This document shows positions 31,812 to 37,244 of a stretch of DNA of 48,428 nt, in pieces. The position numbers were made by a program, and so were the translations under genes. Source of the stretch: a virus. Lineage: Duplodnaviria; Heunggongvirae; Uroviricota; Caudoviricetes. The notes beneath the pieces were generated by a model, which was not told the DNA's origin, did no database searches, and saw nothing but the letters and a program-made list of their open reading frames with translations. Numbering within the stretch: the first letter of the stretch is position 1; every line of letters begins with the position of its first letter. Where the stretch lies: the IMG/VR virus record IMGVR_UViG_3300028379_000400, positions 64,001-112,428 of that record; one strand, written 5' to 3'.

Positions 31812-34520
31812 TTGGCCTATACCATCACCCCTGCGCCGGGGACGATTTCTGTCGCCCATAATTCGGCGGCGATCACAGGCGTCGGCACCATTGGGACGGC
31901 CTATCGTAAGGGCGCCCTAATCCTTGTTCCCGGCATGGGGATCATTGGCCAGCTCGCCGAGACTCCCACTGATGACCTCGCCATGACGCTTGTCGACCTC
32001 CTCGGCGGGTCGACGGACATCTCCGGTGCGGAGTTTCAGGTCATCGCGCAGCCGGAACCATCTGTTTATTCCGAACGGGTACGCGAGATGCTCGAGCAGC
32101 TCTCGGTGCTCGATGCGAACCGGGGCCTTTTCTACACGTTCTCGGTTCTCACCGCGGATGCCGATCCCGGCGCTGGGACCGCCCGCCTGAATAACGCGAC
32201 CCTCGCGTCAGTTACAGGCGCGTTCCTCGACAATAACGATGCCAACGGCAACGACGTTTCAGCCCTTCTGGATACGTGGGACGACAGCACCAATCCTATC
32301 AAGGGATCCCTGATCGTCCGCGACGTGACAGACGCCACCAAATGGGCGGCCTTCAACGTCAGCGGCTCGGTCGTGAATGGCACTGGCTATCGCAAGCTAA
32401 CTCTGGCCTACGTTACTGCCGGCACCGCGATCGACGACGCAGCCGCGGTCACACTCGAGTTCGTTCGAGCAGGTAATGTCGGTGCGACTGGGCCCAGCGG
32501 AGGCCCGACTGGCCCGACTGGCCCAGCGGGTGCTACCGGGTCGACCGGCCCCACCGGGGCCGTTGGCCCGACTGGCGCTACGGGTGTAGGCGCGACTGGT
32601 GCCACGGGTGCCACCGGCCCGTCTGGCGGCCCGACTGGCGCTACGGGTCCGCAGGGCTTTTCCTCTGGTCTCACGTACGCCTTCTCGTCGACCACAACCG
32701 CGGCTGATCCCGGCTCAGGCATCTTTCGGCTGAACAACGCGTCGCACTCCTCTGCGACTGCGATGTACATCGACAACGTCGACAACCTGTCCGGCGCCGA
32801 TGTTACCGGCATACTCGATTCCTGGGACGACAGCACATCGACCGTTCGCGGTCGGCTGCGCATCGCCAGCAAGGCATCGCCATCGATCTGGCGCGAATAC
32901 AACGTCACCGGTTCCGTCGTTAACTCCACTGGCTATCGCACCGTCACGATCGCCTACGTAGCGGGAAACGGCACCCTCACCGATACGACGGTCTGCGCCG
33001 TCGGCTTCTCGCGAACAGGCGACGGAGGCGTTGGGGCCACAGGACCAACCGGCGCTACGGGCGCCGGCACAACCGGGGCCACGGGTCCGGTTGGTGCGAC
33101 TGGCCCGGCGGGCGCCACTGGCGCTACTGGTCCGACGGGGGTCGGCGCGACCGGAGCTACAGGGCCGGCTGGCGCAACTGGCGTGACCGGTGCGACCGGC
33201 CCAACCGGCCTCGGCGCAACTGGCGTCACGGGACCTGTGGGCGCCACCGGACCGGCGGGCGCCACGGGTGTCACCGGACCGACAGGTGTTGGTGCCGCTG
33301 GCGCCACGGGCCCGACCGGTGTGACCGGGGCGACTGGCCCCACGGGTGCGACTGGGCCCCAAGGAAACGGCCTTCAGATCGACGCGACGGGCCTCTACTC
33401 GGGGCGCTCTGCCCATGACGGCGCCGCAGCCGATTTCGTGTATCTGTCGACCAACGGTGACGGCGGGATCACGACAACCCAGCCCGCCCTCTTCGTCAAG
33501 CAGAGCGCTACCTCTGGCGACTGGTCGGCGCTCATTCCTTTTGTCGGTGCCACCGGCCCAACGGGTCCGACCGGCGTTGGCGCCACCGGCTCGACCGGGC
33601 CAACTGGTGTAACGGGTGCAACGGGCCCCACAGGTGTCGTCGGCCCTACTGGTGCCACCGGGCCAACCGGCGTCACCGGCCCGACCGGCCCGACAGGCGT
33701 TCCGGGCGGGGCGGTGACGATCGCCTATACGTTTTCGACGACGACCACCGATGCCGATCCAGGCAACGGAAATTTGCGGCTCGACAACGCGACGCAGAAC
33801 ACGGCCACGACTATTCGCGCCGATCTGCTCGATAGTGCTGGAGCGGATTGGACCTCGGTGCTCGGCACCCTGGCGGCGTCGACCAACACCGTAAAGGGTC
33901 ATATCCGCCTCTCGAAAAAGACAGATCCAACGGCCTATCTGCTGTTCTCGATCTCGGCCTTGGCGTCACCGACCGGCTACAAGAACATCACGGTCGCCAA
34001 TGTGGGGTCATCAACAGCGAATCCCTTCGCGAATGCCGACGCGCTCCTTCTGGAATTCAATCGCGCCGGCGATCTCGGGGCCACCGGGCCCACCGGCGTG
34101 ACAGGAGCCACGGGGCCAACTGGTGTCGGCGCCACGGGCATCACTGGCGCGACGGGATCTACCGGCGTCACCGGAGCCACGGGACCAACCGGCCCGTCCG
34201 GTTCTCCGTTGCCCCGCATCGGCGCGACCGGCAGCTCCTCGGCGCCAACGCCGACCACTAGCTATGATCAATTTGAAATTACCGCTCTCGCGACCGGCGC
34301 CACCATCGCGGCGCCAACCGGATCCCCTGTGGATGGGCAAAAATTGATCATCCGGGTCAAGGACTCCGGGACTGCACAATCGCTGGCGTTCAACGCGATC
34401 TATCGGGCCGTTGGTGTCACGCTCCCCACCACAACCGTCATCAGCAAGACGCTCTATCTAGGCTGCATCTACAACGCCGCCGATAGCGTGTGGGACGTCG
34501 TTGCCGTGGTGCAGCAATGA
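31812..34520 (+). CDS. Collagen-like tail fibre: four Gly-X-Thr triple-helix segments and three copies of a ~115-aa globular domain
   Basis: GPT/GAT/GVT repeats at about 32481-32657, 33033-33365, 33546-33707 and 34077-34202; repeat domains begin Y(T/A)FS.....DPG at 32133, 32676 and 33726. Confidence 0.9.
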
Positions 34521-35749
34521 TCATCCTTCCCGACAAAAACCGGCCAGTTAGCCGCGGCGTTTTTATGCCGATGCGGCGTAAGGACTGGATGTGGGGTTCG
34601 CAGCGGCGAAGCTGCAGCGATACGGCCGATCAGACCAGATGGCATATCGACGCGCTTCATCCCGATACGCGCGAAGTCATGTGGCGGGGATGGTTCGACG
34701 ATCGCGAGGACGCCGACGCGTTTCTCTTCGCCGCGATCACCGGCTCGATCATCAGTGAGCCATCGATCGCCGCTCTCCCCGTGGAGACGTGGCCATCGTT
34801 TTGGCATCCCGACATTTTCGGCGAAGTGCCGGTTCTCTACGCCGCCACGTCAGTCACATTTCTGACCACCACCGGGGCCGGCAGTTATTCGGTTCCACTC
34901 GATTGGACTAACAACGCCCTCAATTCCGGGAAGACGATAGGAGGCGGAGGGACTGGCGGCATCTCGGGAGCGGCCGGCAACGGCGGCGGCGGCGGCGGCG
35001 CATATTCTTCGACCTCAAATATCACGCTGACACCCGGTGGAACCGCCAGCTATTCAGTAGGCAATACGGCGGGGGACAGCTGGTTCAACGGCGCTTCCCT
35101 GGCGGCTTCGTCGGTGGGTTCCAAAGGTGGAACCAGCGCATCAGTTCTGACGGCCGGCAGCGGTGGTGTAGGCACGAGCGGTGTCGGAACCGTCCGCAAC
35201 AGCGGCGGCAACGGTGGCACCGGCAGCAACAATACCGCAGGCGGCTCGGGCGGCGGGGGTGCCGGAGGTCCAAACGGTCCCGGCGGCGCCGGAGGCAATA
35301 GCTCGAGCAGCAACGTCTCGAATGGTGGCGGCGGCGGCGGAAGCGGCGGCGGCGGAAGCGGCACCGGGGGCGCCTCTGCAAGCGGTGCATCAAATTCCGG
35401 CAGCACCGGTACAGCCGGCGGCAACAACTCCGCAGGCACCGGCGGAGGAACCGCGGGCACAAGTTCGGTTGCGGGCGGCGCGGGCTCGAATGGCGGCGGC
35501 GGCGGCGGTCACGGTGACACTTCCGGCGCAGGCGGTGTCGGCGGAGCAGGCGGCGCCGGTACCGATTTCGACGCGAGTCATGGTCCCGGCGGCGGCGGCG
35601 GCGGCTCTCGAAATGGCAAGGCCGGCGGTGTTGCGGCGCTATATGGCGCCGGCGGCGGTGGCGGCAACTCTCCCGCAACGGGGGCGAAAGGCATCGTTGT
35701 TGTCACCTACGTGCCAATCGTCAACTCGATGCTGATGATGTTTTACTAG
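34517..35749 (+). CDS. Glycine-rich tail-associated protein (putative polyglycine-II bundle adhesin)
   Basis: ATGA overlap; [22 protein letters not shown] and [10 protein letters not shown] motifs. Confidence 0.8.
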
Positions 35750-35964: not shown

Positions 35965-36092
35965 TAGTTTGGTTCGCCCCGGGTTATGTCGTTTCGACGC
36001 GTATACCTTAGTATATTCCAGCATCAGGCAATAGGCCTCCCTTCCGAAACCTTGCAGTCGCAAGGCTTCCCGCGTTCTCCAGAGGAATCTGC

Positions 36093-37244
36093 ATGCGTTT
36101 TCACGTCGTAGCGTTGCCGCATACCCAAACCACATCGGCGTTCTCGGCCTGTGCCTACACCAACAAGGTAGTCGGCTTTTGCAAGATGATGATGGCGCGC
36201 GGTCACGAGGTCTTCCTCTACGCCGGCGAGCAGAACGACGCACCCTGCACCGAACTGATCACCTGCGTCAGCGAGACCAAGCGTGCCGAGATCGTCGGCG
36301 ACAAACCCTATGTCGAGGCCAGTTTCGACTACCTGCTGCCTCATTGGCAGACGTTCAACTACCGTGCGATCGCCGGGATCATCGAACGCCGTCAACCCCA
36401 CGACTTCCTGTGCCTGATCGGCGGCCTTGCTCAAAAGCAGGTGGCGGATGCACTGCCTGGCATGACGGCTGTCGAATGGGGCGTGGGCTACGGTGGCGTA
36501 TTCGCGCCATACCGCGTTTTCGAGAGCTACGCCTGGATGCATACCCACTACGGCGCCGCCGCGAGAAGTCCGACCGACGGTGACGGCAAATGGTACGATG
36601 CCGTGATCCCGGGCTACCTCGACCCTGCCGATTTCCCATTCAAGGGTGATCAGCCGGCACAAGCCAAACCCTATTACCTTTTCATAGGGCGCCTCGTCGA
36701 GCGCAAGGGTTTCCAGATCGCGATCGATGCCTGCAACGCGTTGGGTGCCCATCTTGTGCTTGCCGGTCCAGGCGCGCCTCCGGCTGGCGCCGACTATCGG
36801 GGAGTCGTCGGGCCGGTTGAGCGAGGTCGACTGATGGCCGGCGCGACTGCAGTGTTCGTGCCCACGCGCTATATCGAGCCGTTCGGCAACGTCGCGATCG
36901 AGGCCATGGCCTGCGGCACGCCGGTCATCACCACGGACTGGGGAGCCTTTACCGAAACGGTCGTCGACGGAGTCACAGGCTTCCGGTGTCACACGCTTAG
37001 AGAGTTCGTCGACGCCGCAAAGCGCGCGCCAGAACTCGATTCTTCGGTTATCCGGAAGCATGTCGTCGAGCGTTACTCACTTGAAGTCGTTGGCGCCAAA
37101 TACGAACGCTATTTCAAAAGGCTCGATGGCCTCTGGGGCATCGGGTGGCACGACCTGTCGGGCGTCGAAGCCGAACCGGCGCACCTTGGCGCGCCGGTTA
37201 AATCGCGGCGACGGGCTAAAACTTCCAGTTCAAGCCGACCTTGA
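36093..37244 (+). CDS. Glycosyltransferase, GT-B fold, family 4-like
   Basis: RGHEVFLYAGE, LFIGRLVERKG, EPFGNVAIEAMACGTPVITTDWGAFTETV (EX7E motif). Confidence 0.93.
   Translation: MRFHVVALPHTQTTSAFSACAYTNKVVGFCKMMMARGHEVFLYAGEQNDAPCTELITCVSETKRAEIVGDKPYVEASFDYLLPHWQTFNYRAIAGIIERRQPHDFLCLIGGLAQKQVADALPGMTAVEWGVGYGGVFAPYRVFESYAWMHTHYGAAARSPTDGDGKWYDAVIPGYLDPADFPFKGDQPAQAKPYYLFIGRLVERKGFQIAIDACNALGAHLVLAGPGAPPAGADYRGVVGPVERGRLMAGATAVFVPTRYIEPFGNVAIEAMACGTPVITTDWGAFTETVVDGVTGFRCHTLREFVDAAKRAPELDSSVIRKHVVERYSLEVVGAKYERYFKRLDGLWGIGWHDLSGVEAEPAHLGAPVKSRRRAKTSSSSRP

Follow-up and report, generated by a model that had tools for sequence, protein, structure and literature searches.

The window analysed here is a 48,428-nucleotide stretch of DNA, the right-hand 48 kb of a 112-kb provirus record of a tailed phage (IMG/VR record IMGVR_UViG_3300028379_000400; the record is 88% complete), and it encodes a collagen-like tail fibre and a glycosyltransferase (GT) of the GT4 type that belongs to the family phrog_3408. 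We think it probable, from the genes and their relatives, that this enzyme O-glycosylates threonine (Thr) residues of the phage's own fibre. The evidence that carries this reading is a co-occurrence: members of the GT family are found beside collagen-like open reading frames (ORFs) rich in Thr at the Y position of their Gly-X-Y triplets, in phages with unrelated or very distant backbones and at cellular loci. For the broader proposal, that phrog_3408 is a dedicated collagen-Thr O-glycosyltransferase family, unrelated to the enzyme SgtA, that resides mainly on phages and travels together with Thr-at-Y collagen genes, both between phages of half a dozen or more bacterial phyla and into some bacterial chromosomes, we regard the chances as evenly balanced.

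Pairing of the glycosyltransferase family with threonine-rich collagen

The first-pass annotation of the window had suggested testing fibre glycosylation by asking whether this GT clade and Gly-X-Thr fibres occur together, and the outcome was strongly positive. Scans for phrog_3408-type GTs returned at least 597 loci on viral contigs, compared with 34 loci in approximately 185,000 species genomes, several of which are themselves prophage or phage-like; the family is mainly phage-borne. Its hosts are found among Proteobacteria, Actinobacteriota, Cyanobacteria, Saccharibacteria and Bacillota. Pairing was counted in the best 80 of the viral loci, whose GTs are 55-65% identical to the window GT, and an ORF was scored as a collagen ORF when it had 10 or more G-X-Y triplets with Thr at 40% or more of the Y positions. 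Such an ORF lies upstream of the GT on the same strand in 58 of the 80 loci, downstream on the GT strand in 4 and on the other strand in 6, and in 18 of the 22 loci that have no collagen ORF upstream the sequence before the GT is shorter than 4 kb. In 9 loci, no more than 36 nucleotides separate the end of the collagen ORF from the GT start, and some pairs overlap. When the GTs were clustered at 95% identity, 39 of 47 clusters had a Thr-rich collagen ORF within 10 kb, one had none despite at least 8 kb of upstream sequence and seven were uninformative, while at 70% identity all clusters (7/7) were collagen-positive. The pairing is distributed over the whole GT tree, including a deep clade of 35-42% identity.

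The phages that share this pairing have little else in common with the window phage. Its tape measure protein and its gpJ-like central fibre matched none of the 80 loci by tblastn, so the phage backbones are unrelated or very distant, and the window fibre domains were found by tblastn in only 4-5 of the 80. Endolysin and gpJ were also tried as positional controls and failed, as they have too few relatives in single-protein scans of viral contigs (0 and 2, respectively), a result that mainly indicates that this phage backbone is rare and the GT common.

Among 50,697 sequenced phage records, tblastn with the GT found 52, of which 49 are ACG-2014f or S-CAM7 and the rest are Synechococcus phages plus one fragment; two Synechococcus CBW1002 phage records are in the set. 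In the T4-like cyanomyovirus ACG-2014f, the order is the collagen gene gp015, two small ORFs, the GT (40% identity), a 2-oxoglutarate (2OG) oxygenase and a tail fibre. The collagen protein of ACG-2014f and S-CAM7 has 929 residues with Thr at 59 of its 132 Y positions, and its gene lies approximately 1 kb upstream of the GT within a baseplate/tail-fibre module; its globular domain occurs in 49 of the 50,697 records, all of them ACG-2014f or S-CAM7. Other arrangements were found on contigs from further hosts. On an Anaerolineae contig (L102:4169-16570), terminase, portal and an unknown ORF are followed by a methyltransferase-GT fusion, a collagen ORF with approximately 100 Thr at Y and head morphogenesis genes, and this collagen protein may form a fibre of the head and not of the tail. 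On a Solirubrobacterales contig (L099), the collagen ORF stops 6 nucleotides before the GT, with a baseplate wedge gene adjoining, and a prophage of Kaistia nematophila K-TC2 (NZ_JAPKNK010000003.1, L085) carries a collagen fibre with a CBM_5_12 domain, a 223-residue ORF, the GT (55% identity) and a lysozyme.

The pair is also present outside phages. In an Oscillospiraceae genome (L100), it lies between a metal ATPase plus DsbD and type II secretion system E/F genes, and in an Acidobacteriota locus (L110) the collagen gene and a GT-methyltransferase fusion have divergent orientations, with a GT2-TPR (tetratricopeptide repeat) protein of SgtA-like layout and a GH76 enzyme beyond the collagen gene. 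A search for six Gly-X-Thr codon triplets in succession covered five host genomes. Genomes of 6.6, 4.0 and 5.2 Mb each have a single run of at least six triplets, in every case inside the GT locus, and in a 2.8-Mb genome the run at the GT locus is one of two. By our rough estimate, the chance that runs would fall within 10 kb of the GT in all four genomes is about 1e-9.

Specificity for threonine at the Y position

As a control sample, viral collagen-like ORFs were drawn by a generic Gly-X-Y codon pattern that accepts any Y residue. These arbitrary ORFs (n=111) had a median Thr fraction at Y of 0.13 (interquartile range (IQR) 0.04-0.38), and 23% reached 0.4. In contrast, collagen ORFs of any composition in the GT loci (n=79) had a median of 0.66 (IQR 0.57-0.76), and 96% reached 0.4. 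The difference was significant by a Mann-Whitney test (p=2.7e-20) and stayed so after the loci were collapsed to 16 GT clusters at 65% identity (p=2.7e-7). The GT family was not found in 107 new generic collagen loci (0.95 Mb). The contrast in composition indicates that the GT tracks Thr-at-Y collagen and not collagen-like proteins generally.

The two halves of the enzyme are conserved to a similar degree, with 61% identity in the N-domain, which faces the acceptor, and 62.5% in the C-domain, which faces the donor. Since the acceptor side is as conserved as the donor side and the envelopes of the hosts are diverse, an acceptor supplied by the phage fits these values better than host envelopes would.

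The collagen fibre of the window

The fibre ORF starts with TTG, with GAGG 7 nucleotides upstream, and is the only collagen-like ORF of the 112-kb record. It matches Pfam Collagen (PF01391) with an E value of 1.8e-19 and 69.7 bits (cut-off 27.2) and is predicted to form a triple helix; PHROG tail-fibre families match it down to 1e-43. The architecture described in the first-pass annotation was borne out: four collagen segments with mostly Thr at Y, regular G-X-G kinks and three copies of one globular domain. Counted in runs of three or more, the four blocks hold 89 G-X-Y triplets, 59 of them (66%) with Thr at Y, and the X position is occupied mainly by Pro (31), Ala (29) and Val (15). One-residue interruptions of the form G-V-G or G-L-G occur every 7-9 triplets within the runs. 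The inter-collagen domain copies, each of approximately 120 residues, are 41-44% identical to one another, and the AlphaFold2 (AF2) model of copy 2 is beta-rich with a predicted local distance difference test (pLDDT) score of 92.4. A fold search with this domain gave no Protein Data Bank (PDB) match at E<=0.001, and a Pfam search with the non-collagen parts of the fibre (residues 1-222, 284-406, 520-580 and 800-902) returned no family. The inter-collagen domain recurs, often as two copies, in the fibres of five other GT-bearing loci (L013, L021, L035, L077 and L094).

The glycosyltransferase of the window

The same annotation had called the enzyme a complete GT-B glycosyltransferase, and the searches agree with it. 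Pfam scans match Glycos_transf_1 (PF00534) with 65.9 bits (cut-off 26.4) and PF13692 with 68.9 bits (cut-off 27), and residues 1-355 align with positions 5-361 of the 363-position phrog_3408 profile (E 8.2e-78). The AF2 model (pLDDT 90.5) has the two Rossmann domains of a GT-B fold, and Foldseek matches it to PDB entry 7fg9 (template-modelling (TM) scores 0.72/0.80) as well as to BshA, MshA and PimA. Residues R200, K205, E262 and E270, the last two within EPFGNVAIE, are invariant across 47 GT sequences; by analogy with other GT4 enzymes, we take R200 and K205 to be the diphosphate-binding Arg/Lys pair and E262 and E270 to be the E-x7-E motif. The gene is intact and full-length, with its catalytic residues present, and is the sole GT1/GT4- or GT2-type gene of the 112-kb record.

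The nearest solved structures are the alpha-1,2-glucosyltransferase Tll1591, tetrahydrobiopterin alpha-glucosyltransferases, AviGT4, BshA and MshA; these are retaining enzymes of the GT4 type, and several depend on UDP-glucose. Judged by these models, the window GT is most likely a soluble, retaining, UDP-hexose-dependent transferase, with UDP-hexose as the best guess for the donor because it is the nearest structures that point to it. Sequence alignment with the solved structures is confined to the donor-binding half. Fold searches with the GT gave generic GT4 neighbours and no protein O-glycosyltransferase, so the fold leaves the acceptor unsettled.

Proposed function and alternative explanations

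We propose that the GT acts in the cytoplasm and takes its sugar from a host nucleotide-sugar, that it would transfer this sugar to Y-position Thr in the Gly-X-Thr repeats in the infected or induced cell, at a stage when the fibre chains can still be reached, and that the outcome would be virions with a glycosylated collagen stalk. The fibre as acceptor, Thr as the modified residue, the identity of the sugar and the timing are all points that we infer. This genome has one collagen ORF and one GT, which speaks for the pairing of the two, and the lack of a second GT favours an initiating enzyme that performs a single, first-sugar transfer here.

Several observations weigh against fibre glycosylation. 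Glycosylation of the fibre is here a prediction from genes, and the nearest GT structures are not protein glycosyltransferases but enzymes whose substrates are small molecules or glycans. A minus-strand ORF of 93 codons stands between the fibre genes and the GT, a minus-strand outer-membrane protein (OMP) gene of moron type follows the GT, and an island with opposite-strand genes after the tail genes is a classic site for lysogenic-conversion genes. With opposite-strand genes on both sides of this moron-like island, late co-expression of the GT with the fibre is not to be assumed. The family also has exceptions. A member in a Gammaproteobacteria metagenome-assembled genome (L105, genome G005, 3.4 Mb; 39% identity) has a GT2 protein as its neighbour, in non-phage surroundings with an AraC regulator and an alanine symporter, and this genome has no run of six Gly-X-Thr triplets anywhere; three loci (L101, L054 and L095) have no collagen partner within 10 kb of the GT. 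Conversely, only 2 of 120 arbitrary viral loci with at least 8 Gly-X-Thr triplets contain the GT, which suggests either that the GT is one solution among several or that most Gly-X-Thr fibres are unmodified. Finally, the GT4 domain is fused to an S-adenosylmethionine-methyltransferase domain, C-terminal in L110:10001-11761 and L101:9992-11698 and N-terminal in L102:9413-11134, and GT2 or GT2-TPR genes adjoin the GT4 gene in L110, L105 and L101. These arrangements suggest that the L110, L105, L101 and L102 loci make multi-step, methylated glycans, and from such neighbours and fusions the GT may extend a glycan and not start it.

A first alternative is a lysogenic-conversion moron: the GT would be expressed from the prophage and alter an envelope glycan of the host (lipopolysaccharide (LPS) core or O-antigen, exopolysaccharide or periplasmic glucan), blocking superinfection or changing the cell surface, and its proximity to the fibre would merely reflect the usual site of morons after the tail genes. 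We consider this unlikely. It would account for the opposite-strand genes on both sides of the GT, one of them an OMP moron, for the placement of phrog_3408 in the PHROGs category 'moron/auxiliary', for the integrase and repressor genes that lie a few kb downstream on the contig of the nearest GT relative (81% identity), a finding that also counts against action on the fibre, and for structural neighbours that act on glycans or small molecules, an LPS GlcNAc (N-acetylglucosamine) transferase being among the Swiss-Prot fold matches. It does not account for family members among the structural genes of lytic T4-like cyanophages and in a head module, for GTs that abut or overlap collagen ORFs in many loci, for the same pairing at non-phage loci and in three orientations, or for the specific relation to Thr-at-Y composition. 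Nor does it explain why the acceptor-side domain is so well conserved in a family whose hosts have Gram-negative, Gram-positive and cyanobacterial envelopes. LPS conversion had been raised at the outset; its Gtr-type form finds no support, since the 112-kb record contains no GT2 gene (PF00535) and thus no Gtr-type cassette by that mark, GtrA and GT-C proteins not having been searched separately.

It is also conceivable, if improbable, that the GT modifies a different acceptor, namely the Gly-rich protein encoded after the fibre, the tail of the ORF at 17396-17941, or a small molecule or free glycan needed by the fibre. The Gly-rich gene and the fibre gene are translationally coupled, the ORF at 17396-17941 ends in an Ala/Pro/Thr/Ser-rich stretch, a few family members lack a collagen partner, and the nearest GT structures use small acceptors. 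Against these points, the Gly-rich protein matches only 1 of the 80 loci by tblastn, and the ORF at 17396-17941, which had been named earlier as a possible further substrate, is not recurrent with the GT and has no link to it in other genomes; the sole recurrent partner of the GT is the Thr-at-Y collagen ORF. To DNA modification, the other function first suggested, we give hardly any credence. The GT would then glycosylate hydroxymethylated phage bases as a protection against restriction, like the T4 alpha- and beta-glucosyltransferases, which likewise have a GT-B fold. However, the record, which is 88% complete, contains no thymidylate-synthase-like hydroxymethylase (PF00303), the Pfam scan of the GT gave no match to the T4 glucosyltransferase families, so that a T4-type system was rejected as a candidate, the gene lies in the structural and lysis region and not in a replication region, and the pairing with collagen, non-phage loci included, would be left unexplained. 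Phage GTs are nonetheless often assumed in the literature to modify DNA (PMC10202952).

Taken together, the idea that this phage sugars its own fibre, putatively for stability, receptor mimicry or shielding, is upheld in the part that links the GT clade to Thr-at-Y collagen; the glycosylation itself is a prediction, qualified by the moron-like position of the gene.

Comparison with known systems

The best functional analogue is the SgtA-BclA3 system of Clostridioides difficile, in which the gene for SgtA adjoins bclA3 and the enzyme attaches O-GlcNAc in vitro to the Thr residues of GPT repeats (PMC7157674). The likeness lies in a GT gene near a gene for a collagen-like protein with Thr in its repeats, which in BclA3 are Gly-Pro-Thr. 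SgtA, however, combines a GT-A fold with TPRs and forms beta-GlcNAc, whereas the window GT is a compact GT-B GT4 enzyme without TPRs that is probably retaining (alpha linkage), and SgtA is a cellular enzyme for a spore-surface protein, whereas the window GT is phage-borne with a virion fibre as its proposed substrate. A Pfam scan of the window GT gave no GT2 or TPR match, which sets it apart from SgtA-type enzymes. Given the GT-A fold and TPRs of SgtA, the phrog_3408 family would be an analogue at most and not a relative.

BclA of Bacillus anthracis and Bacillus cereus has a Gly-X-Thr collagen-like stalk that carries O-linked, partly methylated oligosaccharides on Thr. These methylated sugars parallel the GT-methyltransferase fusions of L101, L102 and L110. 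Unlike the window fibre, whose non-collagen parts have no Pfam match, BclA ends in a C1q/TNF-like head and is targeted to the exosporium by its N-terminus, and the BclA transferases are cellular, with an unrelated gene context. A BclA-type exosporium glycoprotein was rejected as an identification of the fibre, as neither the regions outside the collagen nor the inter-collagen domain gave a match in the Pfam and PDB searches described above. In reviews, most prokaryotic collagens are described as unglycosylated except for BclA-type proteins (PMC8968730).

A viral enzyme that acts on the virus's own collagen is known from Mimivirus, where L230 glucosylates hydroxylysine of a collagen-like protein (Luther et al. 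2011, cited in PMC8968730). The cyanophage locus resembles this system in that a 2OG-Fe(II) oxygenase lies directly after the GT. L230 is a fused hydroxylase-GT of a eukaryotic virus, whereas in the window phage no 2OG oxygenase was found and Thr is the likely acceptor. The cyanophage oxygenase belongs to 2OG-FeII_Oxy_3 (L082:13073-13666; gp019 of ACG-2014f), and gp019 may be a collagen Pro/Lys hydroxylase.

For phages, Freeman and colleagues reportedly found in 2023 that the mycobacteriophages Che8, Corndog and Myrna glycosylate their own virion proteins with phage-encoded GTs (cited in PMC12801897). The likeness lies in phage GTs that decorate the phage's own virion proteins. The difference lies in the substrates, which are said to be C-terminal extensions of capsid and tail-tube proteins without collagen repeats, and in the hosts, said to be Actinobacteria only. 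The tblastn search of the 50,697 phage records, with its hits confined to Synechococcus phages and one fragment, indicates that the window GT has no close homologue in sequenced mycobacteriophages. The nearest structures, Tll1591 and the tetrahydrobiopterin alpha-glucosyltransferases (PDB 7fg9, 8x3q, 5zer and 9v0l; TM 0.65-0.80, approximately 20% identity), share the GT4 GT-B fold and a UDP-binding C-domain with E-x7-E but differ in their acceptors, a glucan or sucrose and a pterin, respectively, and have no link to collagen genes.

Self-glycosylation by viruses and glycosylation of collagen Thr are thus already known, and what is new is a compact phage GT4 enzyme tied to Thr-at-Y collagen; full-text literature searches found no paper on a phage GT paired with collagen-like fibres. 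To our knowledge, virion glycosylation by phage enzymes is documented experimentally for a few actinobacteriophages only, and we know of enzymatic glycosylation of Gly-X-Thr collagen only in Bacillota spore-surface proteins. If the proposal is true, self-glycosylation would extend to phages of many phyla, abundant marine cyanophages included, and glycosylated collagen would be widespread on environmental virions, in tail, baseplate and perhaps head fibres, sometimes methylated by fused methyltransferases. It would offer a possible explanation for the stability or shielding of phage collagen stalks that lack hydroxyproline, would affect the modelling and engineering of receptor-binding fibres, and would make a simple enzyme available for the glycosylation of recombinant bacterial collagens. 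Among cultured systems, those suited to a direct test are the Synechococcus phages ACG-2014f and S-CAM7 and the Kaistia nematophila K-TC2 prophage, which is practical because its gene order is that of the window and the strain is in culture.

Gene neighbourhood and setting

The late region of the window is of the standard siphovirus type, with terminase, portal, protease, major head protein, head-tail adaptor, major tail protein, tape measure and the gpJ-like central fibre in this order, followed by two unassigned ORFs, the collagen fibre, the Gly-rich ORF, the GT, the opposite-strand OMP gene and the endolysin. Positions 30000-40000 had no megablast match among sequenced phages. Features with coordinates are collected in Table 1.

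Table 1. Features of the window discussed in the text, in order of position.
Feature	Position	Strand	Evidence and remarks
14-gene tRNA array	6050-8746		ARAGORN; 5' of the packaging genes
181-residue ORF between major head protein and head-tail adaptor	17396-17941	+	Ala/Pro/Thr/Ser-rich C-terminal tail of ~45 residues; no family match
Collagen-like tail fibre, proposed acceptor	31812-34520	+	902 residues; Pfam Collagen, PHROG tail-fibre families
Inter-collagen beta-rich domain, copy 1	32109-32477	+	residues 100-222
Collagen block 1	32472-32663	+	residues 221-284; G-X-Y runs, Thr at Y
Inter-collagen domain, copy 2	32661-33029	+	residues 284-406; AF2 model
Collagen block 2, longest	33024-33371	+	residues 405-520; G-X-Y runs with GVG/GLG interruptions
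Collagen block 3	33546-33713	+	residues 579-634
Inter-collagen domain, copy 3	33711-34073	+	residues 634-754
Collagen block 4	34068-34208	+	residues 753-799
Fibre C-terminal non-collagen domain	34209-34517	+	residues 800-902; phrog_3030 over residues 813-901
Gly/Ser/Asn-rich protein, probably a tail or fibre component	34517-35749	+	ATG overlaps the fibre stop codon as ATGA
Small ORF, 93 codons	35749-36027	-	GGGAGG ribosome-binding site; between Gly-rich gene and GT
GT4 (GT-B) glycosyltransferase, phrog_3408, proposed collagen-Thr GT	36093-37244	+	Pfam, PHROG, AF2, Foldseek
OMP beta-barrel gene, moron-like (Omp25/RopB-like)	37216-38028	-	Pfam OMP_b-brl, 3.2e-13
Endolysin (Phage_lysozyme), first of the lysis genes	38266-38952	+	Pfam, PHROG

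The GT had been described as following the next tail gene on the same strand and preceding the lysis genes. Its strand and the overall order agree with this description, but the run is broken by the 93-codon ORF, the OMP gene stands before the lysozyme gene, and the supposed tail gene, the Gly-rich ORF, has no match in Pfam, PHROG or NCBIfam. The 93-codon ORF likewise has no Pfam match. A 6-bp hairpin (CCTTGC-agtc-GCAAGG) is located at 36049-36064, within the 65-nucleotide gap before the GT ribosome-binding site. The leader cassette of the early genes (a hairpin plus GGAGTCCC) was not found in front of the GT, and this result therefore gives no information on the timing of its expression.

At another locus (L240:2-952), a Gly-X-Thr collagen ORF carries at its C-terminus a Gly-rich domain that resembles the one in the window, and from this fusion the fibre and Gly-rich genes of the window may be the split form of one fibre. 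The OMP gene is convergent with the GT, and the two share 29 nucleotides at the GT 3' end. The last ~28 residues of the GT form a low-confidence extension in the AF2 model, and most of its nearest relatives are approximately 30 residues shorter; this C-terminal extension may be a by-product of the insertion of the OMP gene.

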